Source: a bacterium
GTDB taxonomy: Bacteria > Arandabacterota > Arandabacteria > Arandabacterales > Arandabacteraceae
Direction: 5' to 3'
NCBI GenBank assembly: GCA_029933125.1
Contig: JAOZOU010000004.1
Span: forward strand, 200,879-264,878
Length of the DNA: 64,000 nt
Below, piece after piece: positions 2,943 to 25,426 of this stretch. Position 1 is the stretch's first letter, and the number at the start of each line of letters is the position of its first letter. Position numbers and translations under genes: made by a program. The notes beneath the pieces were generated by a model. It searched no databases and was not told where the DNA came from. It was given only the letters and a program-made list of their open reading frames with translations.

Positions 2943-2970
2943 TTGACACTGTGTTTCTCGCTTTTATATA
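2943..2970 (+). promoter_or_regulatory. sigma-70-like promoter TTGACA-N16-TATATA upstream of TBDT module 1
   Basis: TTGACA at 2943-2948 and TATATA at 2965-2970, about 65 nt upstream of ATG 3036. Confidence 0.4.
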
Positions 2971-3035
2971 GTATCTGCGAAAAGATAACCAAAATCGAGA
3001 CCCGATGAAGTCAGCGCAGCCCTGGAGGGGTCATT

Positions 3036-5738
3036 ATGTCTGCCTTGATTAGGATCAGCTTTGTACTTGCCCTTGTTTTGCTTTTTGCAGTCACCTCTGT
3101 GTTTGGCCAGGAGGTCGGAAGGATTGAAGGAACTGTGGTGGCTGCTAAGGATGGGAAACCCTTAGCCTATGCTAATGTGCTTCTTGTTGGTACGGGCATG
3201 GGGACATTTGCTAAGCAAAACGGAACTTTTACGCTTGAGAATGTTCCTGCAGGAACGTATACCGTCAAGGTCATGATGATGGGTTACGCTGCTCAGACAA
3301 GGGAGAACGTTGTTGTCAAGCCAGGGGAGACCACGCGGCTTAGATTTGAGCTCAAAGAGACTGTTGTGATGGAAGTGCCTGTTGTTGAAGTGGAAGCTGA
3401 AAGACCGATGGTTGATACCGAGCGAACCCAAACGAAGCGAACCATCGATACCAAGGAAGTCGCTGTGCGCTCGATCAATACAGTTGAGGATGCTATTGCA
3501 ACCCAGGCTGGAGTCGTTCTTGAACAGGGCGAGATCCATATTCGAGGTGGAAGATCTGGTGAAGTCAAGCAGTTTGTCGACGGTATTCAGATCAGTGATC
3601 CTTTCGTCGGCGCCAACTCGATGGAGCTCAGCCTTGCATCGCTTTCAGAGATAGAAGTTCTTTCGGGTGGCTTTGATGCTGAATATGGCAATGTCCAGTC
3701 CGGTGTTATCAATCTCAAGACGAGAGAGGGTGGAACGAGATATTCGGGTCTTGTTAAGTATATGACTGATGACTATGGAGCACCTGATAAGACCTATTTC
3801 AACTACGATGATTTAGCAATCGGCTTTGGGGGACCTCTGATTACAACCAATCTGAGATTTTTTGCCTCTGGCGAGGTTATGTTTACTGACACCTACCTTA
3901 AGACTCTTGAACCCAGGCAGCAAAAGGAGCTTTGGGGATTCATCAAGTTCCGTGAACGTCAGAGCAATAGCTACTCAGGTCAATGCAAGGTTACCTACTT
4001 CTTCACACCGACGAAAAAGCTCTCCTTGGAGTATCTCACCTCGGGTGAGAAGTTTGATTTTTATCATCATGCATTCAGTCGTGTTGGTTATTGGTCAGAA
4101 GCCCACAGACACTGGTGGTTTGAACCGCTTGATTCAACCTATAGCCTTTACATAGCACCTGCCCACACACCTGATATTACAAATGAACATAACAGTGTTA
4201 AGCTTGTCTGGAGACACACAATAAGCCCATCCGCATTTTACACGATGCGCCTCGGAAGATACGTCGCACTTCATAAAGAGGTTGTCCTTGGCAAGAAACC
4301 CTATGAATATGTGACCCCGAACTTCAACGATCGAGTTGATCCCGAAAACCGCTACTATGTTGTGCAGGGCGATTATCCAATCTGGCAGCGCTATCATACG
4401 ACGATGTACACAGGCAAAGGCGATATGACCATTACCAAGGGTACGACTCATCAGATAAAGTTTGGTGCAGAGTCACACGCCTATCGCCTCGAGATGATGG
4501 ATTTGCGTTATCCCTCCCTCGATAACCCCCTTGGTGTATTCACTGATATATACAAGTTCCATTGCTGGGACCTGTCAGCCTTCATTCAGGATCGCATAAG
4601 GTTTGAGGGTATGAACTTGAGGGTGGGCCTAAGATTTGACCTTTTCGACCCTGGTAAGGATGCTGTCGAAGCCTATAATAGATTCGTGGTATCGACAGGT
4701 TTTAAGCCCAAGCCAGCCTCCTTCTTCAAGCGAATTGAGTGGCAGATAAGTCCGCGCTTTGGGGTTTCCTATCCTATTTCAGAAAGAGACGCCCTTTACT
4801 TCAATTATGGGAGATTCTACCAGATTCCAAGGCTCGAGGTTCTTTACCAGTTCCTGGGTCGAACCGAGCAGGGACTGCTTCCTTTCGGTAATCCCCTCAT
4901 GGATGCTGAGACAACAATAATGTATGAAGTTGGCATTCAACATCAATTCACTCCAACGATTGTTGGTGATATTGCCCTGTTCTATAAGGACATCTTTGGA
5001 CTTACGGGCACTGAGGCAGCCGATCTAACTGAGGATTCTGACTTTATTCAGACCTATGGTCCGACCGCCACACCTGTTGTCTTTGTCAACCTTGACTATG
5101 GATCGGTGAGAGGCATTGAATTCAAACTCAGCAAACGTTTCAGCCATCATTTCCAGGGCAGTCTAACTTATACTTTTTCCAAGGCTACTGGCTCGAGCTC
5201 TAACGAGCTCCAGGGTGCCAATGTTGTGAGTGGGGCAATGGATCGAGCTCCGATAACTGAGCTGCCCCTTGATTGGGATAGAAATCATGTCATATCTGCA
5301 AATCTATATATAAGTGAGCCCGGGCTTTGGGGTTGCAACATTGACTGGAGCTATTCGTCAGGAGCACCCTATACGCCAATGTTGCCGAGGGAGCGTGAGG
5401 TCAGGGCTTCATTGATAAATTCAAGGCGGCTTCCTTCACGGAGCACGGTCAATGTGAAGGCCGACAAGCGTTACAAGATTGCTGGCCAGGAAGTTTCCCT
5501 CTTCCTCGAAGGCAGAAACATACTGAACCGCAAGAACATCGCTACGCTTGATCCAGGAGATTGGCCGGGTGGGGATGGCAACTACGCCGCGTATTATACA
5601 AGGGAGGGTAGGTTTGGTGGAGCTTATGACTTGGGTGAGCTGCTCGGGCTTACGGAGGTGATTTACATTCCTTTGAACGATCCACGAGTCTACTCGCCGC
5701 CTCGCAACTTCAGGGTTGGCATATCATTCGACTGGTAA
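3036..5738 (+). CDS. TonB-dependent outer-membrane transporter with N-terminal carboxypeptidase-regulatory-like domain (module copy 1)
   Basis: Has a signal peptide, a CarbopepD_reg-like beta-sandwich (GTVVAAKDGKPLAYANVLLVGTG...GTYTVKVMMMGY), a plug domain (IHIRGGRSGEV...SGVINLKTREG) and a C-terminus ending in an aromatic residue (GISFDW). An SD (GGAGGGG) precedes the ATG. Paralogous to 22808-25411. Confidence 0.8.
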   Translation: MSALIRISFVLALVLLFAVTSVFGQEVGRIEGTVVAAKDGKPLAYANVLLVGTGMGTFAKQNGTFTLENVPAGTYTVKVMMMGYAAQTRENVVVKPGETTRLRFELKETVVMEVPVVEVEAERPMVDTERTQTKRTIDTKEVAVRSINTVEDAIATQAGVVLEQGEIHIRGGRSGEVKQFVDGIQISDPFVGANSMELSLASLSEIEVLSGGFDAEYGNVQSGVINLKTREGGTRYSGLVKYMTDDYGAPDKTYFNYDDLAIGFGGPLITTNLRFFASGEVMFTDTYLKTLEPRQQKELWGFIKFRERQSNSYSGQCKVTYFFTPTKKLSLEYLTSGEKFDFYHHAFSRVGYWSEAHRHWWFEPLDSTYSLYIAPAHTPDITNEHNSVKLVWRHTISPSAFYTMRLGRYVALHKEVVLGKKPYEYVTPNFNDRVDPENRYYVVQGDYPIWQRYHTTMYTGKGDMTITKGTTHQIKFGAESHAYRLEMMDLRYPSLDNPLGVFTDIYKFHCWDLSAFIQDRIRFEGMNLRVGLRFDLFDPGKDAVEAYNRFVVSTGFKPKPASFFKRIEWQISPRFGVSYPISERDALYFNYGRFYQIPRLEVLYQFLGRTEQGLLPFGNPLMDAETTIMYEVGIQHQFTPTIVGDIALFYKDIFGLTGTEAADLTEDSDFIQTYGPTATPVVFVNLDYGSVRGIEFKLSKRFSHHFQGSLTYTFSKATGSSSNELQGANVVSGAMDRAPITELPLDWDRNHVISANLYISEPGLWGCNIDWSYSSGAPYTPMLPREREVRASLINSRRLPSRSTVNVKADKRYKIAGQEVSLFLEGRNILNRKNIATLDPGDWPGGDGNYAAYYTREGRFGGAYDLGELLGLTEVIYIPLNDPRVYSPPRNFRVGISFDW

Positions 5739-5761: not shown

Positions 5762-7900
5762 ATGGCAAGGGGAAGGTTGTGTTGCTCCGCAGCACTTATT
5801 GGCATTGTGGTCGTCCTGATTTTTGGGACTCTTTTGGAAGGTGAGACCTCAGCACATAACGAAGATTTCGGATTTCCACAGGTCTATCCTGATCCCTCTG
5901 ACCGTGTAGTGAAGTTCTTAGGCAAGTATCATAATCTCAACAATCTTTTGCTACATGTCTCCAACATGGGTTTCTTTGGTGATTGGAACTCCGATCCGAC
6001 TTCGCCATCGGCTGAATGGCCGGCCGGAAGCGGTATAGAGTATCTCTTTGCTGCAGGGCTTTGGGTTGGTGGAGTCGTCTATGACGAGTTCAACCGACCC
6101 GATACACTGGTAAGTGCTGCGGTTTATCAGCTCGAGTACTATCCCAAACCCGATGCCCGTGACGTGATCTACAAGACTGCTGAGAATGAACCGGGGGGCA
6201 GTAGAATTGGGGATGGTGCCGACGATGACGACGACAATCTGGTTGATGAAGATTGGCTTGACGGCTATGACAATGACGGAGATGGATTCATTGATGAGGA
6301 TTTTGCGGCAATCTCACAGCAGATGTACACGTGTACATTTTATGACACGACCACACTGATGAATGCCAACAGAACCGAGGATTTCCACAAGCCGCTCAAT
6401 TTACGTGTTAGACAGGAAAGTTATGCCTGGGGAGGTGAGGCTGCTAAGGATTTCATAGGCGTCGAATACAAGGTCACAAACATTGGGGACTCGACGATTT
6501 ATCAGGCATATGTGGCTTTCATGGTGGATGCCGACATAGGACCCGTTCGCCAGGTTCCGACCTCTTACACAGATGACATGGCCGCCTTCATTGATACGAC
6601 CGTCAAAAAATTTGAACTTAATCTCGATACTGGCAAGATAGAACCGAATGACTATGATCTAACTATTGGTTACATGTACGACTATCCAGGGGGAGACGAT
6701 GGTGATGTTCCAGGCTATATAGGCGTCATGTTTCTTGGTCACACGGTTGATGAAACAGGTAGGCTTGCGCCTCAGCGCGTTGAGATTCACATGTTCAGAA
6801 GCTGGTCAAGTGGTGAAGAGGATCCTCAGGATGACAAGGAACGCTACCGTTACATGCGGGGTAATTCCGATTTTGAGCAAACGATCGATCCGCCGACCAC
6901 AAAGCCTCAAGATTACCGATTCCTTGTTTCAGCTGGTCCCTTTGCGAGGATTCCGCCAGGAAGCACTCTTGTCTTCCAAGTCGCCTTCGTGTGCGGCCAT
7001 CCTTTTGATGACTTTATCGACAATGCTGCGTATGCTCAGAAGATCTACAATGGACGGGTGATTGACGACATACTATACCACTGGGTCGGGTCCAGTCCGC
7101 CTCCGCCGCCGAATCAGATGGTTATACCTAGTGATGGGAAGGTGATCATTGAATGGGATGACTACTCCGAGAGGGTACCCGATCCTCTTGAAGGGTGCTT
7201 TGACTTTGCTGGCTACCGAATCTGGCGAGCAGATGGGTGGAGGCATGAAAGTGAGGTGCCTACGGAGAATCAGTGGAAGCTTATAGCCCACTATGACCTG
7301 GACGATCTGCCGGCAATCGATACAGGCCTCGAGGGAGTTGGCAAGTATCGCTATATAGATTCCGTGGGTGTCCATAACGGGCTCCCCTATTGGTATGCTG
7401 TCACCGCCTTTGATGATGGTCGGGCATTCAGGTTCGTCGTTGATCCGGAGACAGATAGGATGGATTCGATACCGTTCTATGGGAGCTATGCCCAGGCACA
7501 GAAACTCGTATACCCAAGAGCTGAACCTGCTAGAAGAATGGGAAAAGTCCGAATTGTACCCAATCCCTATCCATGGAATCCGAGCAATCCCACGATCCCA
7601 GACGACCTCAGGGAGTCACATCGGGCAATTGGCGACATGGTTGAGTACGAAGGTGATCCCTCAGGGCGAAGGGTGACTTTCGTTGGCCTGCCTCGCAAGT
7701 CGATGGTGAGAGTGTATACCTTGGCTGGCGACCTTGTCTGGAGCAAGTATTTTGAGGGGCCGAATGATCCGATTACAGGTGCACCACCTCAGTGGAATCT
7801 GGTATCAAGAAACAACCAGGAGATTGTTAGCGGAATCTACATTGTCCATGTAGAATCACCTTACGGGTCTGAAATAACAAAGTTCGTTGTCGTCAGATAG
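5762..7900 (+). CDS. secreted acidic protein with Fn3-like domain and T9SS C-terminal sorting domain (module copy 1 cargo)
   Basis: Has a signal peptide and Asp-rich EF-hand/dockerin-like loops (DGADDDDDNLVDEDWLDGYDNDGDGFIDEDF). A poly-Pro linker (SSPPPPPNQ) is followed by an Fn3-like segment (YRIWRADGW...YWYAVTAFDDG). The C-terminal about 90 aa match the Por_Secre_tail pattern (RIVPNPYPW...VRVYTLAGDLV...GIYIVHVES...KFVVVR). A strong SD precedes the ATG. Confidence 0.7.
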   Translation: MARGRLCCSAALIGIVVVLIFGTLLEGETSAHNEDFGFPQVYPDPSDRVVKFLGKYHNLNNLLLHVSNMGFFGDWNSDPTSPSAEWPAGSGIEYLFAAGLWVGGVVYDEFNRPDTLVSAAVYQLEYYPKPDARDVIYKTAENEPGGSRIGDGADDDDDNLVDEDWLDGYDNDGDGFIDEDFAAISQQMYTCTFYDTTTLMNANRTEDFHKPLNLRVRQESYAWGGEAAKDFIGVEYKVTNIGDSTIYQAYVAFMVDADIGPVRQVPTSYTDDMAAFIDTTVKKFELNLDTGKIEPNDYDLTIGYMYDYPGGDDGDVPGYIGVMFLGHTVDETGRLAPQRVEIHMFRSWSSGEEDPQDDKERYRYMRGNSDFEQTIDPPTTKPQDYRFLVSAGPFARIPPGSTLVFQVAFVCGHPFDDFIDNAAYAQKIYNGRVIDDILYHWVGSSPPPPPNQMVIPSDGKVIIEWDDYSERVPDPLEGCFDFAGYRIWRADGWRHESEVPTENQWKLIAHYDLDDLPAIDTGLEGVGKYRYIDSVGVHNGLPYWYAVTAFDDGRAFRFVVDPETDRMDSIPFYGSYAQAQKLVYPRAEPARRMGKVRIVPNPYPWNPSNPTIPDDLRESHRAIGDMVEYEGDPSGRRVTFVGLPRKSMVRVYTLAGDLVWSKYFEGPNDPITGAPPQWNLVSRNNQEIVSGIYIVHVESPYGSEITKFVVVR

Positions 7901-7926
7901 GATAATTGAGGAAGGAGGATTTCGAG

Positions 7927-8904
7927 TTGAAAACTAAGATTGGATTAGCGCTTGCATTGATCCTGCTTGTTTCAAGCCTTGTCTGGTCGGCTGAGATCTT
8001 TGAGAAGGTTGGTACGGTTGGTGCCCAATTTCTCAAGATTGGGGTTGGTGCTCGTGGCGTTGGAATGGGTGAGGCATTTGTTGCCATGGATGGCGATGCC
8101 ACGTGCACGTACTGGAATCCAGCTGGCATAGCAAATATTGAAGGAAGTCAGTTTTCTCTGAGCCATGCTTCATGGCCTGCGGAGATGAGTCATGAGTTCG
8201 CTGCCTATGTTTTCTCCTACAAGTTTATACCAGGAGTGCTCGGGCTGAGTGCGGTGGTTCTCCAGATGGATCCAATGCCTGAGACGACAGAATATCGTCA
8301 GCAAGGCACTGGTTATTCCTTCGATGCCGGTAGTATGGCCTTTGGTCTGACGTATGCAAGGATGCTAACTGACCGTTTCTCTTTTGGTGCAACTTTGAAG
8401 TGGATACACGAAGGGTTGGCGGACTTCAGTGGCGAGACTTTTGCAGTTGATCTTGGGAGCATCTACAACACAGGCTTCAGGGACATAAAAATCGGCATGG
8501 CATTCGTAAACATGGGATCAGGCTATACTTTCTTCGAGGGAGGCAAGGAAAGTCCGATGCCTGTGATGTTTAAGGTAGGTGGATCAATGCCTCTGTTGAA
8601 CACCAGTGACCATAGGTTGATTGGGGCCGTGGAATTCAATCATCCACCGGATGGTGCCGAGCGGGTGAATGCTGGTGCTGAATACGTATTCCAGCGTTTT
8701 GGGCCTAACTTTGAAATAGCCTTGAGAGGTGGCTATCGCTTCAACCGTGATGAAGAGGGTATTACAGCAGGTTTTGGCATAAAGTTCCCATTTGTCAGAA
8801 TTGGCCTTGTCAACAAGCCCTCGATATGGAGAGTTGACTATTGCTATTCTGACATGGGCTTGCTCGAGAGCTCCCATAAGATCTCTCTGAGCGCTTCGTA
8901 TTAA
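7927..8904 (+). CDS. PorV/PorQ-family (FadL-like) outer-membrane beta-barrel protein, dedicated paralog (module copy 1)
   Basis: Signal peptide followed by the family-typical motif GTVGAQFLKIGVGARGVGMGEAFVAMDGDATCTYWNPAGIA. Length is about 330 aa and the protein ends in an aromatic-rich beta-barrel terminus (LSASY). Start re-called at TTG 7927, which has the SD GAGGAAGGAGGA 7 nt upstream. The ORF-track start at 7906 lies inside that SD. Confidence 0.6.
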   Translation: MKTKIGLALALILLVSSLVWSAEIFEKVGTVGAQFLKIGVGARGVGMGEAFVAMDGDATCTYWNPAGIANIEGSQFSLSHASWPAEMSHEFAAYVFSYKFIPGVLGLSAVVLQMDPMPETTEYRQQGTGYSFDAGSMAFGLTYARMLTDRFSFGATLKWIHEGLADFSGETFAVDLGSIYNTGFRDIKIGMAFVNMGSGYTFFEGGKESPMPVMFKVGGSMPLLNTSDHRLIGAVEFNHPPDGAERVNAGAEYVFQRFGPNFEIALRGGYRFNRDEEGITAGFGIKFPFVRIGLVNKPSIWRVDYCYSDMGLLESSHKISLSASY

Positions 8905-8905
8905 A

Positions 8906-10474
8906 ATGCGGTACTCGAGGCAAACTCAAGGGGTAGCAAGTGGTTTGCTACCCCTGATTGCTATTCCTCTCTTCCTGCCGTTGTCCGCCCTGTATGCCCA
9001 GACATGGGCTGAGTATGGTGACGTGCCAGTAAGCAGTAGCGGTGATCTCACCTTCTATGCCGATATTGCTAGCTACTATGATGGGGCAGAGAATCTCGAA
9101 GAAATCTACTTTCTGATAGCGAATGATCAGGTAAAATTTCTCGAAGATGCACATGGATACAAAGGGAGGCTCAGACTTTCAGTTGACCTACTCAATGACG
9201 ACGGTAGTGTTGCTGGAAAGGCTGAAAATGAAGTCACGGTTTATGCTTCGAGCTCGGAGGAAGCTCTCGACCGCAGCGTAGTCCAGGTTCTTCAAACACA
9301 GATTCATGTTCCGCCCGGTCGTTACGTTGCGAAGATGGAGATTGAAGATCTCAATGCTGTGAAAAAAGCCCTTATTCCATACATTCTTAAGCGACATAAG
9401 AAGGGTAGGGTTGAAGTCCTGATAGACTCACCCGATTTCAAAGCCAAGGGAATCGCACTAAGCGACATAGAGTTTGCAAGGGGACTTCGTAGGACTAGCA
9501 AGGGGCAGTTCCAGAAATCGGGATTAGAGATCATTCCAAACCCTCCTCGGCGCTATGGGCTCTTGCTTCCAGAGCTCGCCATCTACTTCGAGGTTTATGA
9601 TTTTGATCAGGAGGTTTCCGATTCGGTCACCGCAACCTACAGGATAGTGAATAGGACAGGTGCAGAGATATATAAGCAGCAGAAGCTTTTGCGGGTAAGA
9701 GGAGAGCGCACACCGAGTACCGCTCTGTTTGATATTACATCCTTGAGTGCGGGTAGCTATCTTCTCGTTGTCAGCCTTGATCTTGCAGGGAGAAGCGTCA
9801 GCAGTCAGCGGAAGTTTGACGTGGCCTGGTCACCGCTGTCCTGGGGAAGGTACGAAACTGAGATGATAGGAGACGTGGAATACATCCTCACAGAGAAAGA
9901 GATGGAGGAGTTTGAATCACTCTCCCCTGGGGGGAGGGAAAGATATCTCGAGGAGTTCTGGCGCAGGCTTGACCCCACACCTGGTACTGCTGAGAATGAG
10001 GCGAGAACGGAGCATTATCGAAGAGTCGTCTATGCCGACAAACACTTTGGGACGAGCACCAAGCGTGGAGCCCTCTCCGATAGAGGGAGGCTCTACATTA
10101 AGTACGGTCCACCCGATGATATCCAGAGTTTCTATTCTGACATGGATTTTGTTAAAGGCAGACGCCACATCGAAGGTGCTGAGTCGCCAGTACCGACCGA
10201 TCCCTTCACTCGCGTGGGAATAAAGGCTGGTTCGGGTGAGCCTGGTGGATGGCAACAGGCCGGCTCATCTGCAGATGTCCATGGAGATCAAATTGGTGGC
10301 ATGACAGTTCATGGCAAAGCGTATGAGATATGGACATATGAAGGCGCTGGCAAGCCGATTCGGCGTCTTTCAAAGCGGATTGCTAAGAGTCCTGTGATGC
10401 AATTTATCCTGGTTGATGAGAAAGGAATAGGCGATTACAGGCTTGTCTATAGCACCGAGCAACAGGAATACTAA
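8906..10474 (+). CDS. GWxTD-domain protein, secreted (copy 1)
   Basis: Signal peptide plus a C-terminal region (EEFWRRLDPTPGTAENEARTEHYRRVVYADKHFG...RGRLYIKYGPPDDIQ) that matches the GWxTD-domain pattern. Paralogous to 18630-19886, which carries the exact GWRTD motif. Starts 2 nt after the PorV-like stop. Confidence 0.55.
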   Translation: MRYSRQTQGVASGLLPLIAIPLFLPLSALYAQTWAEYGDVPVSSSGDLTFYADIASYYDGAENLEEIYFLIANDQVKFLEDAHGYKGRLRLSVDLLNDDGSVAGKAENEVTVYASSSEEALDRSVVQVLQTQIHVPPGRYVAKMEIEDLNAVKKALIPYILKRHKKGRVEVLIDSPDFKAKGIALSDIEFARGLRRTSKGQFQKSGLEIIPNPPRRYGLLLPELAIYFEVYDFDQEVSDSVTATYRIVNRTGAEIYKQQKLLRVRGERTPSTALFDITSLSAGSYLLVVSLDLAGRSVSSQRKFDVAWSPLSWGRYETEMIGDVEYILTEKEMEEFESLSPGGRERYLEEFWRRLDPTPGTAENEARTEHYRRVVYADKHFGTSTKRGALSDRGRLYIKYGPPDDIQSFYSDMDFVKGRRHIEGAESPVPTDPFTRVGIKAGSGEPGGWQQAGSSADVHGDQIGGMTVHGKAYEIWTYEGAGKPIRRLSKRIAKSPVMQFILVDEKGIGDYRLVYSTEQQEY

Positions 10475-10481
10475 AAAAGGG

Positions 10482-10510
10482 TTGACAAGGTTGGGTGGGG
10501 ATATTATGGT
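10482..10510 (+). promoter_or_regulatory. possible promoter TTGACA-N17-TATGGT upstream of exbB
   Basis: TTGACA at 10482-10487 and TATGGT at 10505-10510, with a 105-nt leader to ATG 10616. Confidence 0.3.
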
Positions 10511-10615
10511 TTATGCGATCAATCACATGGTCGTTTGATCGGGTGCTTACCGATCGACGGCCTATTAATGTGGTTAGGACAGACTAGGGATAACTTCCAC
10601 AAGGAGAAGGGTAGA

Positions 10616-13697: not shown

Positions 13698-13711
13698 GAA
13701 GGGGGAAGGGC

Positions 13712-17432: not shown

Positions 17433-18637
17433 AATGGGTCGGTGAAACGGTAAGGGTTGCAATATCTTCGCTACTTGCGAACAGACTTAGAACACTCCTT
17501 ACGGTTATTGGAGTGATAATCGGTATTGGAACGATAATTGCCATGTTGGCTCTCATTAACGGTATCAATAGATCTGTCCTGACCGAGTTTGAAAGACTTG
17601 GACCAAATGTGATCTTTATAACACTAGAAGAACCAGGATTGCGTGTAGGTTTTTCTGCGGTCAGGAGGAAACGCATAACCTATCGCGAGGTTGAGCAGTT
17701 AAGGCGGAGATGTGATTCTATTGATAAGATGTCGATCATTTCCCAGCAGCGGTCGGTCGTCAGCTATCGTGGAAGAGACAATGTTGTGACCCTTCTGGGC
17801 GTGCAGGCTGATTATGATGAAGTTGCAGCCCTGAGGCTTGCTGAAGGGAGATTCTTCAATGAGGTTGAGGAAAAGGGGTTGAGAAGGTGTGTCTTGGGTG
17901 CTGAGGTTGCCAAGAATTTCTTTGGAAAGGCATCACCACTTGGTAAATTCGTCGAAATAGGGGGACAGCGCTTCAGGATAATTGGAGTCCTGCAAGAGTC
18001 TGGTGTGGTTATGGGAACCAGGTACGATGATGCTGTCTTCATTCCCTATCCCTGGACTAGGGCGATGTTTGGAGAGCGCAGGGATAACTACGTTATGTTG
18101 CTTCCTAATCATGACGTCAATCCCGATGATGCTGTTGAGCATATAAGACTCACACTGCGTTCGATAAGGAAAATACCGCGTGGCTCTGATGACACATTTG
18201 CGATTTCTACTCAGCAGGGAATGCTCGAGACATATAACAAGTTGACAGGTTCAATATACTGGGTTATGAGAATAGTGGCATCAATTGCTCTTCTGGTTAG
18301 TGGTATAGGTATAATGAACATTATGCTGGTCAGTGTGATGGAGAGAACTCGTGAGATAGGTCTGCGTAAGGCTATAGGTGCGAATCGTGCTACTATCGCA
18401 GTCCAATTCCTCATTGAGGCTGTGATTTTGACGAGTATAGGTGGAATTGCTGGAATAGGTTTCGGCTACCTGGTTCGCCTGCTCGTTGGCACTTTGACAC
18501 CCCTACCTGCGAGTGTTCCTCTCTGGGCAATACCGTTTGCTCTCGGGATTTGCTGTGGTATTGGCATCTTTTTTGGACTCTATCCTGCGTTGAGGGCTTC
18601 CGCCCTTGATCCAGTCAAGGCTTTGAGATATGAATGA
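17429..18637 (+). CDS. ABC transporter permease, FtsX/MacB-like (paralog)
   Basis: 402 aa, same architecture (ALLVSGIGIMNIMLVSVMERTREIGLRKAIGA). Confidence 0.75.
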   Translation: MKWVGETVRVAISSLLANRLRTLLTVIGVIIGIGTIIAMLALINGINRSVLTEFERLGPNVIFITLEEPGLRVGFSAVRRKRITYREVEQLRRRCDSIDKMSIISQQRSVVSYRGRDNVVTLLGVQADYDEVAALRLAEGRFFNEVEEKGLRRCVLGAEVAKNFFGKASPLGKFVEIGGQRFRIIGVLQESGVVMGTRYDDAVFIPYPWTRAMFGERRDNYVMLLPNHDVNPDDAVEHIRLTLRSIRKIPRGSDDTFAISTQQGMLETYNKLTGSIYWVMRIVASIALLVSGIGIMNIMLVSVMERTREIGLRKAIGANRATIAVQFLIEAVILTSIGGIAGIGFGYLVRLLVGTLTPLPASVPLWAIPFALGICCGIGIFFGLYPALRASALDPVKALRYE

Positions 18638-19886
18638 CAAACTCTACAGGGTGCCTGTCTTTTTGATAGCGATCTTTCTATGCTCAACGAGTCTTGCTCA
18701 GATAACCTACCTGCCTGCATGCTCATCGCTAACCCCCTTCTTTTGTGTAGATGCGGCATACTTTGTGGAAGATGGTAACTGTGTGGTTGAGACCTTCTTT
18801 GAGATCTGTAACGAAGGTCTGCAGTTCGTCAAAACCGATGGAGGCTTCAAGGGGCAGGTGGATGTCTCTGTTGTCATCATGGATGATAAGGATCGTCAGG
18901 TGGCTGGCGATACATATCGCCTTAGATTGTATGCTTCCAAGTATGACGAGACAACATCGGTGGATTCCTGTCGAACCAAGGTATTGAGACTTAAGGTGAG
19001 GCCTGGGAAGTTTAGGCTGATCGTTAAAGCGTATGATAACGACTCGAGGGCTAAAAGCGTTATCGAGGGACTCTTGACAGTGCCTGACATGGACAGCCTT
19101 CCTACCCTGAGTGATCTCGTCCTTTTGAAGCCAAGTGAACATCCTGGTGGAAAACGTTGGGGCAATTATGTTCCCGCGGTTAGGAGGAAACTCAATGTAA
19201 GCGAGGAAAAAACTGCTCTCTATTATGAGGTGTATTGTCATGACTACGGGGATTCGCTTACCCTGAGGCAGACAATATCAGATAAGAATGGCAAAGCGCT
19301 TGTCAGGCATGAAAAGCATATCTTCGGAGCGGGCAAGGTCGTCGAGCTTTCAGATCTGGGGGTGGATTCGCTCTCCAACGGACATTATGAGCTCGAAGTG
19401 GTCTTGGCAAGAAGCGATGGCTCAGTTGTGTGTAAGCGGCAAAAGGAATTCGAAGTTTTCTCAGAAGCCTTCTACTTCGACAGGGATGTTGAGGGTGCGG
19501 TCGCACTTTTAACATATATAGCGAGCGGCAGCTTCATAGACGCCTTTGAGAAGGCAGATGCTGAGGAACGTAAGCGGCTCTGGGAGGAGTTCTGGCGGGA
19601 AAAAGATCCCACTCCGCAGACTCCTAAAAACGAATTCTATGAGGAGCACGTGCGCAGATTTAGTTACGCGAATCAGCACTTTGCCACTTCGATGACCGAG
19701 GGTTGGAGGACAGATCGTGGTAGAATCTACATAATCTATGGTGAGCCCGATGAAATCGAAAAGTATCCAGGCGAAGTTAGACGTAAGCCGATGGAGGTTT
19801 GGTACTATTACAGTCGCGGCAAGCGGTTCATTTTCGTAGATGAGACCGGTTTTGGTGACTATGTCCTCGTTGGTCAATATCGCTAA
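18630..19886 (+). CDS. GWxTD-domain protein, secreted (copy 2)
   Basis: Signal peptide. C-terminal EEFWREKDPTPQTPKNEFYEEHVRRFSYANQHF...GWRTDRGRIYIIYGEPDEIE carries the literal GWxTD motif. Overlaps the preceding permease stop by 8 nt. Confidence 0.6.
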   Translation: MNDKLYRVPVFLIAIFLCSTSLAQITYLPACSSLTPFFCVDAAYFVEDGNCVVETFFEICNEGLQFVKTDGGFKGQVDVSVVIMDDKDRQVAGDTYRLRLYASKYDETTSVDSCRTKVLRLKVRPGKFRLIVKAYDNDSRAKSVIEGLLTVPDMDSLPTLSDLVLLKPSEHPGGKRWGNYVPAVRRKLNVSEEKTALYYEVYCHDYGDSLTLRQTISDKNGKALVRHEKHIFGAGKVVELSDLGVDSLSNGHYELEVVLARSDGSVVCKRQKEFEVFSEAFYFDRDVEGAVALLTYIASGSFIDAFEKADAEERKRLWEEFWREKDPTPQTPKNEFYEEHVRRFSYANQHFATSMTEGWRTDRGRIYIIYGEPDEIEKYPGEVRRKPMEVWYYYSRGKRFIFVDETGFGDYVLVGQYR

Positions 19887-20655
19887 GGATTGCTACTCCC
19901 AATCGTATGTTCGCCTTCCCGTTGCGAGTCTGAGAGCAAAGCCAAACAGACAGGCTGAGCTGATTTCTCAGGAGGTGGTAGGAAGAAGGGTAGAGATTCT
20001 CAGGTGCAGAGGCGATTGGCTAAAATGTCGCTTGAGGGATGGTTATCTTGGATGGCTACCCAGAAGGGCTGTTGCGGTGGATCCCGATTTTATGGCAAGC
20101 CACTTTGTAGTCTCACGCTTTGTTCGTATGCGATCCACTTGCGGAAAGGTGATACTGCCCCTTGGAAGTGTAGTAAAGGCGAAAAGATCGGGAAAATCCT
20201 ATGAGATCTACCTTCCCGGAGGTCAGGTTGGATTTATGGAAGCGGGCAAGCTCAGGTCACTTAGATTTCTTCCATTTGATTCCAGCCAGTACAGGAGGCT
20301 AGTTAGGGAAGTTGCTGGAGCTCCTTATCTCTGGGGAGGCAAAACACCTTTCGGATTCGACTGCTCTGGTCTAGTTCAGGTGATTTTTGATCTTATGGGC
20401 GTGATGTTGCCGAGGAACTCACGTGATCAGGCAAGAATTGGAAAGCCTATCGAATCAATCCATAAAGCTCAGGTTCTTGATCTTTTATTCTTCGCACACG
20501 GGGCTAACATCGATCATGTTGCCATCTACCTTGGCGAATTGAGGTTCCTCCATGCATCCGACTGGGTGAAGATTGAGTCATTGAGGGAAGGCGATCCTTG
20601 CTACAGGGGTGACCTGTTGGCCAGCCTAGTTGAGATCAGGAGAACTGTTCTATGA
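19840..20655 (+). CDS. NlpC/P60 (C40) family peptidase with N-terminal SH3-like domain; start may be downstream (e.g. 19861)
   Basis: Catalytic Cys context YLWGGKTPFGFDCSGLVQVIF, followed by a His region (DHVAIYLG). Confidence 0.7.
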   Translation: MRPVLVTMSSLVNIAKDCYSQSYVRLPVASLRAKPNRQAELISQEVVGRRVEILRCRGDWLKCRLRDGYLGWLPRRAVAVDPDFMASHFVVSRFVRMRSTCGKVILPLGSVVKAKRSGKSYEIYLPGGQVGFMEAGKLRSLRFLPFDSSQYRRLVREVAGAPYLWGGKTPFGFDCSGLVQVIFDLMGVMLPRNSRDQARIGKPIESIHKAQVLDLLFFAHGANIDHVAIYLGELRFLHASDWVKIESLREGDPCYRGDLLASLVEIRRTVL

Positions 20656-21689
20656 TCGAATTTCGTCGGGCAGCGATTCTTGCTGAAGGTAGTTTTGGAA
20701 TCCTTACATCCAAAACTGCAGTCTGTCTGGTAAGGTACGTGCCTGATAAGGTCTGCTGCATTATTGATAGCAGCAAACGGGGAAAGCTCGTCGAAGATAT
20801 TCTGGGCTTTGGAGGTGCTATTCCCATCGTTGGGTCAATTGAAGAGGCAATGGAACTGTCTCCTGATACTTTGCTTATTGGTATAGCTCCCAGGGGTGGT
20901 CTCTTGCCAGAGGAGTGGCGCCAGATCATCCTAAGGGCAATCGCCTTCCGGTTGAACATCATAAGTGGACTTCACACCATGCTTACGGAAGATCCCGAAA
21001 TCAGGGAGGCAGCGAGGGGGAAAGGAGTCAGCATTTGGGACATAAGAAAGCCGATAATTCCTGACGGTGTATTGACAGGCAGGCTAGCCAAAAGGGATGG
21101 ACGAGTGATTCTTACCGTCGGATCAGACTCACGAACTGGCAAGATGACCGTTGGCTACGAACTTGTGAAGTACCTCGAGCTCAAAGGTATCAAGGCCGCG
21201 TTTGTTCCAACTGGCCAGACAGGTATCCTCTTGGGAGGCAATGGATATGTTATTGATAGGATTGCCGGTGATTTCATGTCGAGGGTTGTTGAAGATCTCA
21301 CTTATGAAGCTCTCAAGACTGCGGATGTGGTTGTTGTTGAGGGACAGGGTTCTCTTGTTCATCCCGCCTATTCCGGAGTCGCCTTATCCATAATACATGG
21401 GTGCTATCCCGACGCCATGATTTTGTGCCATCAGCCTACACGGAAACACATAGAGGGTTATGGAGTTGAGATACCGCCTCTTGAAGACCTCATCACCCTG
21501 CACGAGACTATTGCGCGACCTGTGTTTGAATCCAAGGTTATTGCGATTGCCGTCAACACCTTTGATCTAACCGAAGTCGAAGCTCTTCACACAATAGAGA
21601 CGATTCATTCCCAAACTCGACTCCCAACGGATGATGTAATTCGCTGGGGTTGGCAGAAGCTCTCTGCAGCCGTGGAGGCGATATTATGA
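20652..21689 (+). CDS. DUF1611-domain protein (partner of dipeptide epimerases)
   Basis: 345 aa with Rossmann-like N-terminal and P-loop-like C-terminal halves. Classic overlap (ATGA) with the downstream Ala-Glu epimerase. Confidence 0.65.
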   Translation: MIEFRRAAILAEGSFGILTSKTAVCLVRYVPDKVCCIIDSSKRGKLVEDILGFGGAIPIVGSIEEAMELSPDTLLIGIAPRGGLLPEEWRQIILRAIAFRLNIISGLHTMLTEDPEIREAARGKGVSIWDIRKPIIPDGVLTGRLAKRDGRVILTVGSDSRTGKMTVGYELVKYLELKGIKAAFVPTGQTGILLGGNGYVIDRIAGDFMSRVVEDLTYEALKTADVVVVEGQGSLVHPAYSGVALSIIHGCYPDAMILCHQPTRKHIEGYGVEIPPLEDLITLHETIARPVFESKVIAIAVNTFDLTEVEALHTIETIHSQTRLPTDDVIRWGWQKLSAAVEAIL

Positions 21690-22699
21690 GAATTGAGGGA
21701 AAGATATATGACTTGGTTCTTGAAGTTCCCTTTGCCATCGCAAGGAATACCACATCCAGGCATTCGATCTGCATCGCTGAAATTCAATTTGAAGGCTTTG
21801 TTGGCTATGGAGAGGCTTCTCCATCAGGCTACTACGGCGATAGTACTGAGAAGGCAATGCTTGCTATCAATGGAGCAGGTAAGCTTCTTGAGGATCCATT
21901 TGCCATGGAGAAGATAAGCCGTGCCTTATTAGAGAATTTCCCGGATAGTCCGTCTGGGAGAGCTGCAATAGAGATTGCCCTTTATGATCTCCTTGGTAAG
22001 GTTACCAATCAACCCGTGTACAGGCTTTTGGGACTGGCAGGTATGGATCCGCCCATGACGTCGTATACTGTTGGCGTAGAAGATGTGGCTATAGCGGAGC
22101 GGCGTCTGGAGGTCCTGCGGCAGTACCCAATTCTCAAGGTGAAGCTGGGTTTTGGAGATGAGCTGCGCCTGCTTGAGCTTTTAAGCAGCGAGACCAATGC
22201 AAGGTTGAGGGCCGATGCCAACGAGGGCTGGCAACTCGATGAAGCGATAGAGAAAATAAACTCCTATGGCGAACGCTTTAATATCGAGTTCTTCGAACAG
22301 CCCTTACCCAAGAACCAAAGGGAGAACTATCGAAAGCTCAAGCGTGAAACCCGCGCAACGATAATTGTTGACGAAAGCGTCGTGACACCAAGCGATATTC
22401 TCGAGTGGGCAGATATAGTTGATGGAATCAACATAAAGCTCATGAAATGTGGAGGTATAGCACAGGCACTCAAGATGATATGGACAGCAAAATCAGCAGG
22501 TCTCAAGGTCATGCTTGGTTGTATGATTGAAAGTTCTGTGGGCATAACAGCGGCGGCTCATTTAGCTCCTCTTGTAGAGTATTGCGATCTCGATGGCAAT
22601 CTTCTCATCACAAATGATCCCTTCACAGGCGTCAAAGCTGTTCGAGGCATCCTAGGCCTTCCTACGAGCCCCGGTTTGGGTGTGAAACCAACCATCTAA
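21686..22699 (+). CDS. dipeptide (L-Ala-D/L-Glu) epimerase, enolase superfamily
   Basis: Enolase-superfamily pattern (KVKLGF...KLMKCGGI...MIESSVG). Start set to ATG 21686, which overlaps the DUF1611 stop. Confidence 0.75.
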   Translation: MRIEGKIYDLVLEVPFAIARNTTSRHSICIAEIQFEGFVGYGEASPSGYYGDSTEKAMLAINGAGKLLEDPFAMEKISRALLENFPDSPSGRAAIEIALYDLLGKVTNQPVYRLLGLAGMDPPMTSYTVGVEDVAIAERRLEVLRQYPILKVKLGFGDELRLLELLSSETNARLRADANEGWQLDEAIEKINSYGERFNIEFFEQPLPKNQRENYRKLKRETRATIIVDESVVTPSDILEWADIVDGINIKLMKCGGIAQALKMIWTAKSAGLKVMLGCMIESSVGITAAAHLAPLVEYCDLDGNLLITNDPFTGVKAVRGILGLPTSPGLGVKPTI

Positions 22700-22807
22700 C
22701 AGGTCCCGACGTGTAAATTCTGCTAAAGAATGCAAACCCTCGGTCGATAGACACCTAGGAAACGTCAGTCAAGAGGTCCTGTATCTTTGTTGGAGGAGAG
22801 GTGTAAC

Positions 22808-25411
22808 ATGCGAAAACTTACTCCTATCTTTATGGTCGTATTGTGGCTCGCTTTCGCCTGTGGTCTCCAAGCGGGAACAACAGGGAAGATCGCAGGTATG
22901 GTAATTGATGCCGAAACCGGTGAGCCCCTCACTGCGGTAAACGTCACTGTCGAAGGTACGCATCTAGGTGGAATCAGCAACCTCGAAGGGCTTTATCACA
23001 TCGTAAATGTTCCACCTGGTACCTATTCAGTCAAGGCTTCAATGATGGGCTATCAGCCTCTTGTGGTTGATGGAGTTGTTGTCAATGCTGATTTCACAAC
23101 AACAGTTGATTTCCAGCTTGACCCCACAGTACTCGAGGTTGTTCCCGAAATTGTGGTTACAGCTGAGAGGCCGATGATAAGAAAAGACATGACTTCATCA
23201 ATCAGCGTGGTTGAGCATGATGAAATATCCATGCTTCCCATTGAGTCGCCCTTCGACATAGTCAGCTTCCAGGCAGGTGCTGCGCTTGATCGCAGGGGTA
23301 TCCATATCCGTGGAGGACGTGAGACTGAGATATCCTATGCCATCAACGGGGCGACAATTCTTGATCCTATTTTCTCGAGAGCTTCTGCGAGCTATGACGA
23401 ATCTGCAATTCAAGAAATGGTCATCCTGAGTGGGGGATTCACTCCAGAGTATGGAAATGCTCAATCAGGTATAGTGAATGTCATCACCAAAGAGGGTGGA
23501 CCGACTTTCAAGGGAGAAGTTGAAAAGCAATTCTATCTTCCTCTTGAGACCCTTTGGCAGGCTGCTGACGATGCGAAGAAGTATGACACGGGTTACAATA
23601 CAACCAAGCTTACCCTCAGCGGTCCAACCCCTTGGACAGATAAGCTGAGGTATTTCATCTCAGGTGAAACTTCCAAGTGGGACGATTGGGATCCCCATGT
23701 CTATGTTCTCCCCAATCAAGGTCGTGATCTCGATCAGGTCATCTGGAAGGTTACAGGCTTCCCTGGCCACAATGTCAAGCTCTTCAGTGAGGGACTTTTC
23801 TACTACACCAAGTTCAGGGTTTGGGATGCTCAGCGCCAGAAGATACCCGAGACCTTCCTTCAGTATAAGAGAAAAACACTTGTCAATCTCGTTGGCATGA
23901 GCCATATGGTAAGCCCGAGTACATATTATGATGTCTCCCTGTCGAGGTTTTCCACTTCCTATCATGTTGCTCAGCCAGGCAAGTGGTATGATATGAGCAA
24001 ATCCCAGGAGTGGAACACCACTCCTGCCGAGGAAGGCGGTGGTGGCTTAGATCTTCAGCCAGAATATGATGAGGACAACTTCATCGTAGCTGGAGATAAT
24101 CCCCTCTTTCATGACTCACAATCCACTGTTTATGGTTTCAGGGCAAGCCTTACAAGCCAGGTGAATGAACACCATCAACTCAAGGTCGGTGGTGAGGTTG
24201 ATCTCTACGACTCACGTCATCAGGAGGTCTATGCTCCAGCAGGTAACATCTACAGGAACGACTACAGGGTAACTCCAAGGTACTATGTTGGCTATCTACA
24301 GGATAAGATTGAGTACAGCGGGCTCATTGTAAACACAGGTCTTAGGCTGGATGTTTTTGATCCCAACTTTAAGTATCCTTCGGATCCAATCTATCCCTGG
24401 GATCCTTCAATACAGGTCCCTGGACCCGAGTGTGGAGGTCCGGACAATACCGAGCCTCCTCTTTGGAAGCTTAAAGACGCATCTGTTAAACTTCAGGTTA
24501 GCCCGCGTCTTGGTATTTCTCACCCTGTCTCCGAGAGAACCGTGCTTCACTTCACCTATGGCCACTACTTCCAGGTTCCGGCTTTCCGCTATCTGTACAC
24601 CAATACCAAGTACGACATGGGCGGGCATTGGCCGCTCATAGGTAACCCCAATCTTAAGCCGGAAAGAACCGTTTCCTACGAGGTTGGGCTTGAGCATCTG
24701 ATTGCTGAGGACCTCATGATAGACCTTACAGGTTTCTACAAGGACATTTATGATCTCATCTCAACTGTTGTGATAAATGATAGTCGTGATTCCGATACCC
24801 CACCCGATGCAACCGAGTACACAACCTACCGTAATACAGACTGGGGCAATGCGAGAGGCTTCGAGGTCACACTTCAGAAGAAGTTCAGAGAGGACTGGAT
24901 GGGAAGGCTCATCTATACTTTCATGGTTGCAAAGGGTAGAAGCTCGGATGTTCTCGAGGGCTACAGAAATCGCTTTGAGGGGAATGTACCACCTTCCAAG
25001 GAATATTATCTGGATTGGGATAGAAGGCACAATATAGTTGTCGACCTGGGCTACGGCAGGCGCGACAACTGGTCAGTGAATGTTCTCGTCAAATATGCCT
25101 CAGGTTCACCATATACTCCTGTTGAAAATACCAGGTCCGCTCAACCCGAGCAGAATACCGCAAGATTCCCTTCAACGTCCGTGGTCAATCTCAAGCTCTC
25201 CAAGGATTTCAATCTCTTTAACATGAGGGAGCAGGTTTTCCTGCAGGTTGAAAATCTCTTCAACAAGCGCAACCTTGTTGCCTTCGATGATGACAATACC
25301 GATCTGATGCGTCACCTGAGACTAACCGGTGAATATACCGGACCTTTCAATGATGTAACTGTCTATGGAGCACCGAGAGAGATAAAAGGAGGCATTAGAG
25401 TGCAGTTTTAG
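22808..25411 (+). CDS. TonB-dependent outer-membrane transporter with CarbopepD_reg-like N-domain (module copy 2)
   Basis: Paralog of 3036-5738. Signal peptide, GKIAGMVIDAETGEPL...GTYSVKASMMGY, plug (IHIRGGRETEI...SGIVNVITKEG), and a C-terminus ending in an aromatic residue (GIRVQF). Start moved to ATG 22808, which has SD GGAGGAGAGG upstream. Confidence 0.8.
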   Translation: MRKLTPIFMVVLWLAFACGLQAGTTGKIAGMVIDAETGEPLTAVNVTVEGTHLGGISNLEGLYHIVNVPPGTYSVKASMMGYQPLVVDGVVVNADFTTTVDFQLDPTVLEVVPEIVVTAERPMIRKDMTSSISVVEHDEISMLPIESPFDIVSFQAGAALDRRGIHIRGGRETEISYAINGATILDPIFSRASASYDESAIQEMVILSGGFTPEYGNAQSGIVNVITKEGGPTFKGEVEKQFYLPLETLWQAADDAKKYDTGYNTTKLTLSGPTPWTDKLRYFISGETSKWDDWDPHVYVLPNQGRDLDQVIWKVTGFPGHNVKLFSEGLFYYTKFRVWDAQRQKIPETFLQYKRKTLVNLVGMSHMVSPSTYYDVSLSRFSTSYHVAQPGKWYDMSKSQEWNTTPAEEGGGGLDLQPEYDEDNFIVAGDNPLFHDSQSTVYGFRASLTSQVNEHHQLKVGGEVDLYDSRHQEVYAPAGNIYRNDYRVTPRYYVGYLQDKIEYSGLIVNTGLRLDVFDPNFKYPSDPIYPWDPSIQVPGPECGGPDNTEPPLWKLKDASVKLQVSPRLGISHPVSERTVLHFTYGHYFQVPAFRYLYTNTKYDMGGHWPLIGNPNLKPERTVSYEVGLEHLIAEDLMIDLTGFYKDIYDLISTVVINDSRDSDTPPDATEYTTYRNTDWGNARGFEVTLQKKFREDWMGRLIYTFMVAKGRSSDVLEGYRNRFEGNVPPSKEYYLDWDRRHNIVVDLGYGRRDNWSVNVLVKYASGSPYTPVENTRSAQPEQNTARFPSTSVVNLKLSKDFNLFNMREQVFLQVENLFNKRNLVAFDDDNTDLMRHLRLTGEYTGPFNDVTVYGAPREIKGGIRVQF

Positions 25412-25426
25412 GACTGGAGGTTGGAA

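Follow-up and report, generated by a model that had tools for sequence, protein, structure and literature searches.

Examination of a 64,000-nucleotide stretch of a bacterial contig (JAOZOU010000004.1, positions 200,879 to 264,878; hereafter the window, within which all coordinates are numbered from the first nucleotide) revealed two copies of a three-gene cassette. Each encodes a TonB-dependent receptor, a secreted protein ending in a tail similar to the C-terminal domain (CTD) of type IX secretion system (T9SS) substrates, termed here the middle protein, and a 14-stranded β-barrel of the PorV/PorQ family. The three genes recur together in ten or more named lineages and are co-inherited. In the reading favored here, to which a probability of about 0.5 is assigned, the trio would comprise a SusC/SusD-like uptake module that lacks SusD and holds its surface protein on a dedicated barrel by means of a retained CTD. 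The original prediction for this region, made from the sequence alone, had considered only the barrels and the proteins encoded before them, proposing cargo-specific shuttles or anchors.

Results

Two paralogous three-gene cassettes in the window

In cassette 1, receptor 1 (3036..5738, + strand; 900 residues), middle protein 1 (5762..7900, + strand; 712 residues), and barrel 1 (7927..8904, + strand; 325 residues) are encoded in that order. Cassette 2 comprises genes encoding receptor 2 (22787..25411, + strand; 874 residues from the start of the open reading frame (ORF), with a probable ATG start at 22808), middle protein 2 (25421..27313, + strand; with a probable ATG start at 25427 that yields 628 residues, as in the database model P0241), and barrel 2 (27335..28318, + strand; 327 residues). 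In both cassettes, 9–23 nucleotides lie between the end of the receptor gene and the start of the middle protein gene, with 21–26 nucleotides separating the latter from the barrel start. As such, the two PorV-type barrels are indeed present where they had been placed, each immediately following a secreted, CTD-tailed protein.

In a census of the 64 kb window, each component was counted exactly twice, and no barrel lay outside the two cassettes. The receptors share 32% identity, the middle proteins 25% identity, and the barrels 32% identity (E 6e-53). Because all three components are paralogous, the three-gene cassette can be traced to an old duplication.

The trio is conserved across genomes

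Going by the names of homologues, the source organism belongs to Candidatus Eisenbacteria/Eiseniibacteriota. A scan of genomes with a profile of the barrel led to 80 loci, the ORFs of which were scored with profiles derived from the proteins of the window. These loci come from Eisenbacteria, Krumholzibacteriota, KSB1, Calditrichota, Cloacimonadota, and Ignavibacteria, as well as from Fermentibacteria, Stahlbacteria, Bacteroidota, Gemmatimonadota, and Poribacteria metagenome-assembled genomes (MAGs). When the count was restricted to those 57 loci offering at least 5.5 kb of upstream sequence, a homologous receptor was found upstream of the barrel on the same strand in 55, representing at least 10 named lineages. 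Of 71 loci, 47 have a middle-family gene immediately upstream of the barrel and 21 have the receptor gene there, with the other three apparently reflecting artefacts of the ORF-overlap and distance criteria. Pairing of the barrel with a middle protein or receptor is thus far beyond chance.

When six loci were tested, every one had its receptor, middle protein, and barrel closest to one and the same window cassette. Because all three components of a locus track the same cassette, the trio has been co-inherited since the duplication. Moreover, the cassette 2 trio is kept in three different genomic contexts. By these sequence relationships, the receptor, middle protein, and barrel co-segregate as two ancient lineages. 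Tandem complete cassettes on a single strand were also observed, namely, in loci L050 (535-14946) and L054 (164-13711).

Gene order is also maintained beyond the trio. Genomes at approximately 45% identity repeat the order receptor, middle protein, barrel, GWxTD-domain protein, exbB-exbD-exbD-tonB, a Yip1-domain gene, and a gene encoding a TolC-like outer membrane efflux protein (OEP). The exbB-exbD-exbD-tonB set likewise follows the cassette in loci L002, L003, L004, L007, and L012, while a gene encoding a GWxTD protein lies directly downstream of the barrel gene in 28 of 70 loci. The four-gene core of receptor, middle protein, barrel, and GWxTD protein recurs elsewhere without the TonB genes.

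These patterns bear on the possibility that the barrel is devoted solely to its neighboring cargo, as a private shuttle or anchor of the T9SS, with the receptor being functionally unrelated or merely co-regulated. That the barrel is PorV-like, that its neighbor carries a CTD, and that cognate carriers have precedents in PorQ-PorZ and SprF-SprB are all in line with such a role. Nonetheless, the receptor is the most constant partner in the set, lying upstream in 55/57 loci from at least 10 lineages and directly abutting the barrel in 21/71; it also co-diverges with the barrel and middle protein, and the trio changes genomic context as a unit. A private shuttle is, as such, considered unlikely. 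The unit is not the pair of cargo and barrel originally described but rather a trio that includes the receptor preceding each pair. What survives of the proposed cargo-specific shuttle or anchor is the PorV-like fold of the barrel, together with its linkage to, and co-diversification with, genes for CTD-tailed proteins; on these grounds, a role as cognate carrier or anchor is reasonable. The original argument had also taken for granted that only PorP/SprF-type barrels are encoded next to their cargo, thereby overlooking porU-porV, an adjacent gene pair in Bacteroidota genomes.

The barrels belong to the PorV/PorQ family

Barrel 1 presents a signal peptide, a KVGTxGAxFLKIG...R...MG hatch motif, a WNPAG motif, 14 strands, and a C-terminal Y. 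Barrel 2 ends in F, and its ATG start is preceded by the Shine-Dalgarno sequence GGAGG. The ORF containing barrel 1 opens at position 7906, with the start having been proposed to be an internal TTG at position 7927 supported by a Shine-Dalgarno sequence. That assignment found support. The sequence GGAAGGAGGA at 7909-7918 precedes the TTG, and initiation here provides barrel 1 with a normal signal peptide. The start is further supported by the fact that the database gene model P0121 comprises exactly 325 residues, corresponding to 7927-8904, as do some 25 close homologues.

Profile hidden Markov models were used to discriminate between PorV, PorQ, PorP/SprF, and FadL. Barrels 1 and 2 respectively scored 190.2 and 191.3 bits against the subfamily-level PorV/PorQ model NCBIfam NF033709 (cutoff 90), covering profile positions 2-324 of 326, and 35.5 and 36.2 bits against Pfam PorV PF19572 (cutoff 27). 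Both remained under the cutoffs of the equivalog models, namely, PorV (NF033710; 78.8 and 65.8 vs 250 bits), PorQ (NF033711; 90.0 and 106.4 vs 220 bits, with barrel 2 being aligned over its full length), and PorV2 (NF052325; 78.3 and 53.9 vs 325 bits). PorP/SprF (TIGR03519) was rejected, with barrel 1 giving no match and barrel 2 scoring 13.4 vs 90.55 bits, as was FadL/OmpP1/TodX (Toluene_X PF03349), for which barrel 1 scored 15.9 vs 29.7 bits and barrel 2 gave no match, PorV also being the better structural match. The barrels are, therefore, PorV/PorQ family members at the subfamily level that are none of PorV, PorQ, PorV2, PorP/SprF, or FadL by the thresholds of those models, and assignment to FadL or another 14-stranded family did not occur.

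When a profile built from 25 members of the barrel family was compared with all PDB sequences, Flavobacterium johnsoniae PorV (6h3i_F) was the sole match (E 9e-21), with the alignment spanning the N-terminal KVGTxGAxFLKIG...R...MG...WNPAG region. An AlphaFold2 model of the barrel (predicted local distance difference test (pLDDT) score 81.5) comprises 14 strands and an N-terminal hatch. The best fold matches were PorV chains 8gl6_F and 6h3i_F, with template modelling (TM) scores of 0.69-0.71, as compared to 0.53-0.60 for FadL, TodX, and TbuX. The relation of the barrels to FadL/TodX is thus at the level of fold only.

Two other assignments of function to the barrel can be weighed against these results. 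In one, the barrel would be a FadL-type channel that conducts a small hydrophobic or amphipathic molecule beside the receptor and binds no CTD. The FadL superfamily fold with its hatch, the conserved WNPAG (NPA-like) motif, precomputed Toluene_X matches for some homologues, and the naming of homologue P0211 as 'long-subunit fatty acid transport protein' by the Joint Genome Institute (JGI) would fit such a channel. Given, however, the Toluene_X score of 15.9 vs 29.7 bits, the clear precedence of PorV in both sequence and structure, and the constant company of CTD-tailed proteins that a channel would leave unexplained, this is judged to be very unlikely. In the other, the barrel would be an assembly or scaffold factor, inserting the receptor or mounting the surface partner rather than serving as a long-term anchor, much like BamG of the Bacteroidota β-barrel assembly machinery (BAM), a FadL-like barrel that acts as a platform for surface proteins (PMC12578637). 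The Porphyromonas gingivalis BAM chain 9hjm_F was, in fact, among the fold matches (TM 0.47). As this match is far weaker than that to PorV, and as one barrel per cassette suggests a stoichiometric partner and not a general factor, hardly any weight is given to such a role.

The loops of the barrel are in keeping with the favored uptake module. The long S3-S4 loop (residues 115-133) includes T121 and G127, and together with the adjoining F132-G135 segment these positions are near-invariant among orthologues. Both the S3-S4 and S7-S8 loops diverge strongly between barrels 1 and 2, with the S7-S8 loop of barrel 2 containing an insertion of approximately 17 residues. The corresponding S3-S4 loop of PorV extends into SprA (summarised in the preprint 10.1101/2025.01.03.631275), within which the extracellular loops of this carrier protein bind substrate CTDs (PMC10994853). 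The presence of an S3-S4 loop that is conserved yet differs between paralogues, a feature read from sequence, hints at an anchoring and uptake function.

The middle proteins and their CTD-like tails

Middle protein 1 comprises a signal peptide, a large β-sandwich domain (residues ~55-445), an Fn3-like domain (~450-585), and a CTD-like tail (~595-712), an architecture like that of middle protein 2. A Pfam scan of the two middle proteins returned no matching family. The model of middle protein 1 generated by AlphaFold2 had a pLDDT score of 75. When the N-terminal domain was compared with PDB structures using Foldseek, only matches with a TM score of 0.24 were obtained, these being to the N-terminal β-sandwich of glycoside hydrolase GH116 and GH94 enzymes and to copper amine oxidase. 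Naming a function from such similarity was rejected as the likeness is too weak. Residues 50-445 of middle protein 1 (window 5909-7096) matched 1606 clusters (50% identity) at a threshold of E<=1e-3, while 549 clusters were matched at E<=1e-10, making this β-sandwich a candidate new domain family.

The tails had been described as type-A-like; the match is sub-threshold for the window proteins themselves, with a consistent signal being seen at the family level. Against TIGR04183, which with PF18962 represents the T9SS type A sorting domain, middle protein 1 scored 17.3 bits vs a cutoff of 23 and middle protein 2 gave no match. Among 32 middle proteins considered at E<=0.01, TIGR04183 was matched by 20 (best match, E 1.4e-5), the PorZ C-terminus by 19, and the PorU C-terminus by 11. 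The PorZ and PorU C-termini also weakly matched the tails of both window proteins and provided the sole such matches for middle protein 2, and a profile of the middle family found the CTD of PorU (6za2) in the PDB at E 0.08. Identity with PorU or PorZ was nonetheless rejected, since the match is limited to the C-terminal ~70-110 residues and neither a peptidase C25 domain nor a propeller is present. On the basis of these weak CTD matches, the middle proteins may be considered putative T9SS cargo.

Several other features of the middle family deserve mention. The β-sandwich domain contains a near-invariant acidic stretch (DDDGDG..DED..DNDGDG.IDEDF) that is rich in DxDxDG and resembles a calcium-binding site. 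In middle protein 2, a Cys- and acid-rich linker (DYEGDCESLCEDQCQDCQECYDQCLEKCMQ; residues ~485-520, window 26900-27000) that is not seen in middle protein 1 separates the Fn3-like domain from the CTD-like tail; it is probably owing to this linker that the homologue P0252 was named 'ferredoxin' by JGI. Finally, the middle protein paralogue P0099 (locus L001, 8001-10163) stands alone in a 4.7 Mb genome, with no receptor or barrel within 8 kb, such that not every member of the family is cassette-bound.

The receptors and the adjacent TonB genes

Receptor 1 includes a signal peptide, a CarboxypepD_reg domain (69.4 bits), a plug, a barrel of the 22-strand type, and a C-terminal W. The TonB_dep_Rec_b-barrel model PF00593 was matched by receptors 1 and 2 at 95.9 and 117.6 bits, respectively, while the Plug model PF07715 was matched above its cutoff by receptor 1 (33.8 bits) and just under it by receptor 2 (21.3 vs 23.9 bits). 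TonB-box-like sequences, VVEVEAER in receptor 1 and EIVVTAER in receptor 2, are found ahead of the plug. The SusC/RagA model TIGR04056 gave scores of only 24 and 60 bits vs 368.25, with the matches being confined to the N-terminal region. Receptors 1 and 2 scored 48 and 41 bits against Pfam OMP_b-brl_4 (cutoff 30).

Directly downstream of barrel 1 is the fourth gene of cassette 1, encoding GWxTD-domain protein 1 (8906..10474, + strand; 522 residues, including a signal peptide; PF20094 43.6 bits, TIGR04514 93.9 bits). It is followed by exbB (10535-11449), exbD (11464-11871), a second exbD (11881-12300), and tonB (12308-12925), all on the + strand.

The presence of these genes raises the question of whether the TonB-linked receptor might export the middle protein instead of importing a substrate. 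According to this scenario, an Oar-like receptor would export the middle protein independently of the T9SS, energized by TonB, while the PorV-like barrel would receive the CTD, together forming a minimal set of translocon, carrier, and motor that parallels SprA, PorV, and GldLM. Both receptors exceed the cutoff for OMP_b-brl_4, which we take to be a model of Oar-type barrels; exbB-exbD-exbD-tonB are adjacent; and Poribacteria and Gemmatimonadota MAGs are among those carrying the trio. Precedent can be found in Myxococcus xanthus, where the TonB-dependent transporter Oar is needed for protein secretion, as in the case of PopC (PMC6434023). On the other hand, the Rhodothermus trio considered below lies within polysaccharide utilisation loci that require import, and the enzymes of that organism carry ordinary Por CTDs. 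Many of the loci identified here also encode further proteins with a bona fide Por_Secre_tail, which implies a general CTD pathway. In addition, a plugged 22-stranded barrel would generally be a poor conduit for a 70 kDa β-rich protein. As such, this form of export is held to be a very doubtful prospect. Only slightly less doubtful is the broader notion that the trio, together with ExbB-ExbD-TonB, constitutes a self-contained machine for surface display and uptake with no need for the T9SS, in which either the TonB-dependent barrel would export the CTD-tagged protein to its PorV-like carrier or BAM and the barrel would jointly mount it.

Transcription-related signals were also sought in this region. 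A promoter-like site (TTGACA-18-TATAGT; 11/12 positions) at 2943..2972 (+ strand), preceding receptor 1, is the best consensus match of the region, and a second such site at 10482-10510, in the gap before exbB, is among the best. As the total numbers of sites in the promoter and terminator scan equaled the shuffled expectation, the two intergenic sites are suggestive only. A hairpin with a 12-bp stem (of the AGGGGTAGCAAG...CTTGCTACCCCT type) at 8929-8955 is positioned 25 nucleotides past the barrel 1 stop codon, in the first 50 nucleotides of the GWxTD protein ORF; its 81-nucleotide context folds at -27.9 kcal/mol (z = -3.6 vs shuffles). Such a structure could set different levels of expression for the barrel and GWxTD protein genes or stabilize the upstream mRNA.

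Neighboring genes and possible substrates

Directly upstream of cassette 2, and kept in locus L087, are genes encoding an NlpC/P60+SH3 peptidase, a DUF1611 protein, and an MR_MLE-family epimerase (19840..22699, + strand). GWxTD-domain protein 2 (18630..19886, + strand; 418 residues) is encoded not behind barrel 2 but three genes ahead of cassette 2, a position that it also occupies in L087. The DUF1611 protein and MR_MLE racemase presumably resemble the DgcN/DgcA D-glutamate pathway, while the NlpC/P60 peptidase and epimerase are assumed to be like YkfC/YkfB of murein-peptide recycling. These flanking genes, in part through such pathway likeness, suggest that cassette 2 takes cell-wall peptides as its substrate.

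Across the loci, flanking genes include those encoding Opp-type ABC transporters and NlpC/P60 proteins, several peptidases, and, next to the barrel, an M24 peptidase. The flanks hint at nutrient acquisition, and specifically at peptides or cell-wall peptides. In a Bacteroidetes MAG, the barrel gene is directly followed by one (locus L075, 8019-9659) for an N-acetylmuramoyl-L-alanine amidase that carries a bona fide Por_Secre_tail, which appears to be a further link between the module and the products of cell-wall breakdown.

Between the TonB genes and cassette 2, the window region 13011-19886 encodes a YknW-like Yip1 membrane protein, a TolC-like OEP, a HlyD-type adaptor, and two MacB/FtsX permeases, followed by GWxTD protein 2. 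In other Eisenbacteria as well, the TonB genes are succeeded by this Yip1/OEP/adaptor/permease block. GWxTD proteins thus accompany two distinct outer membrane systems; no mention of GWxTD proteins was found in the literature searched. The rest of the window contains housekeeping genes.

Discussion

The findings presented here are best accommodated by a three-gene outer membrane module consisting of a CarboxypepD_reg-type TonB-dependent receptor, a Sec-exported β-sandwich/Fn3 protein with a CTD, and a dedicated PorV/PorQ-family barrel. The middle protein would cross the outer membrane via the CTD route. Its CTD would not be cleaved but would instead remain on the extracellular loops of the cognate barrel, as PorZ remains on PorQ and PorU on PorV, both of which keep their CTDs (PMC10947112). 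In this manner, the middle protein would be displayed at the cell surface beside the receptor with which it is presumed to associate. There, it may act as a capture or lid protein, capturing or presenting a putative polymer-derived substrate, which the receptor would then transport inward using energy provided by ExbB-ExbD-TonB. The module would accordingly be the functional equivalent of SusC/SusD in lineages that rely on CTD display and have no SusD lipoprotein, and the two window cassettes, which are ancient paralogues, would have different specificities. The notion of a dedicated anchor is in keeping with a review that proposed 'cognate PorV-like beta-barrels' for specific substrates (PMC10202324), and with the anchoring of type-B cargos by PorP/SprF barrels (PMC9143113). 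The barrels described here probably resemble PorQ or PorV in their anchoring role, yet are tied to a TonB-dependent receptor that is not SusC.

A number of observations weigh against this proposal. Stoichiometry varies, with two middle proteins accompanying a single barrel in loci L018, L077, and L086 and two tandem barrels following a single middle protein in L028, L032, L036, and L042; the claim that each cargo has its own private barrel hence fails as a strict rule. In Ignavibacteria-type loci, moreover, the barrel abuts the receptor with no middle protein between them, in surroundings that encode bona fide Por_Secre_tail proteins, an Fn3 protein, and an NHL protein. The TIGR04183 scores of the window proteins are sub-threshold, and a profile of the family CTD, when run on bona fide Por_Secre_tail proteins from loci L057 and L048, gave no match at E<=1e-3, such that the tail is best viewed as a divergent CTD subtype. 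Substrate binding by the N-terminal domain is a guess, given the lack of an informative structural relative. No T9SS core genes (SprA/Sov, PorK/L/M/N, PorU) were found within the 64 kb window. Annotation as PorV/PorQ family proteins also extends to spirochaetes, which are not known to have a T9SS, and Pfam UPF0164 gave a near-match in the Pfam scan of the window proteins, so that the family label alone does not imply a T9SS role. Lastly, the contacts between barrel and CTD and between barrel and receptor are putative.

Support from a cultivated organism may come from Rhodothermus marinus. The alginate utilisation locus of this species encodes a TonB-dependent receptor (2805 nucleotides), a T9SS type A sorting-domain protein (2181 nucleotides), a PorV/PorQ family protein (1056 nucleotides), and a hypothetical protein (1398 nucleotides), with these genes being placed among alginate lyases and genes of the 2-keto-3-deoxygluconate (KDG) pathway, an order on which the paper does not comment (PMC9530828, Fig. 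2). The corresponding genes of window cassette 1 are close in size (2703, 2139, 978, and 1569 nucleotides). The xylan locus probably has the same arrangement, with Rmar_1070 encoding a receptor, Rmar_1071 a hypothetical protein with a Por CTD, and Rmar_1072 a hypothetical protein (PMC6987092). Going by annotation and size, the products of these loci are probably homologous to the window proteins.

Barrel-type genes already carry the public label 'PorV/PorQ family protein', and one published figure shows the order of the genes. Within the literature searched, no paper was found that treats receptor-linked PorV-like barrels as a class or explains the module, nor was any found that links Eisenbacteria with type IX secretion. 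Current models of uptake consider SusC/SusD pairs with lipid-anchored partners, while models of T9SS anchoring consider one shared PorV, with PorQ and PorP/SprF as special cases. Should the proposal hold, the module of receptor, CTD protein, and PorV-like barrel would join the two fields, providing a surface capture device that combines a secretion tag with a dedicated barrel in at least 10 named lineages of the Fibrobacterota-Chlorobiota-Bacteroidota (FCB) type, as well as in polysaccharide loci of the cultivated R. marinus. It would also assign function to the Pfam-less middle family, to many genes annotated as encoding a 'PorV/PorQ family protein', and to GWxTD proteins. In a weaker form, the proposal would describe a SusD-free 'utilisome' of receptor, CTD protein, and PorV-like anchor found across the FCB superphylum, including candidate phyla, itself new as a described class. 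Were the trio instead to prove a self-contained, T9SS-independent machine, recognition of a CTD by PorV would represent an older modular principle that was later adopted by the T9SS.

Comparison with known systems

Like Oar of M. xanthus, the window receptors, which match OMP_b-brl_4, are TonB-dependent barrels of the CarboxypepD_reg type; we know of no PorV-like or CTD partner of Oar. As for the barrels, F. johnsoniae PorV (402 residues), part of the SprA translocon (6h3i, 8gl6), is their closest match whether sequence or structure is compared and, like them, has a hatch motif at the N-terminus and a long S3-S4 loop. The window barrels are, however, some 40-75 residues shorter, score 66-79 bits vs the equivalog cutoff of 250, are not encoded beside porU, and, unlike a single shared shuttle, occur in two copies, each specific to its cassette.

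In PorP/SprF carriers, such as SprF-SprB and PorP-PG1035, a locus-specific FadL-like barrel similarly adjoins the CTD protein that it presumably carries and anchors, with many paralogues per genome (PMC9143113). The systems differ in that the window barrels do not belong to that family (13.4 vs 90.55 bits), in that the CTD is type-A-like or PorZ-like and not type B, and in that a receptor is a partner. The PorQ-PorZ and PorV-PorU pairs of the P. gingivalis T9SS attachment complex are also comparable. There, too, a 14-stranded PorV/PorQ-family barrel is paired with one protein, the CTD of which is retained and bound by the barrel, affording surface anchorage (PMC10947112, PMC10202324), and it is the C-termini of PorZ and PorU that the tails of the middle family match. 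By contrast, the window barrels fall under the equivalog cutoffs, the protein with which they are paired is not a PorU peptidase or a PorZ β-propeller, and pairs of the type seen in the window are tied to a TonB-dependent receptor and occur in several copies per genome.

Finally, as in SusC/SusD systems, a gene encoding a CarboxypepD_reg-type TonB-dependent transporter is followed by one encoding a surface accessory protein, and the R. marinus trio is found in substrate-specific loci (PMC9530828, PMC6987092). Here, however, the receptors lie outside SusC/RagA and SusD is absent, with a Sec signal and a CTD seemingly replacing the lipid anchor, and with an additional barrel completing the set.

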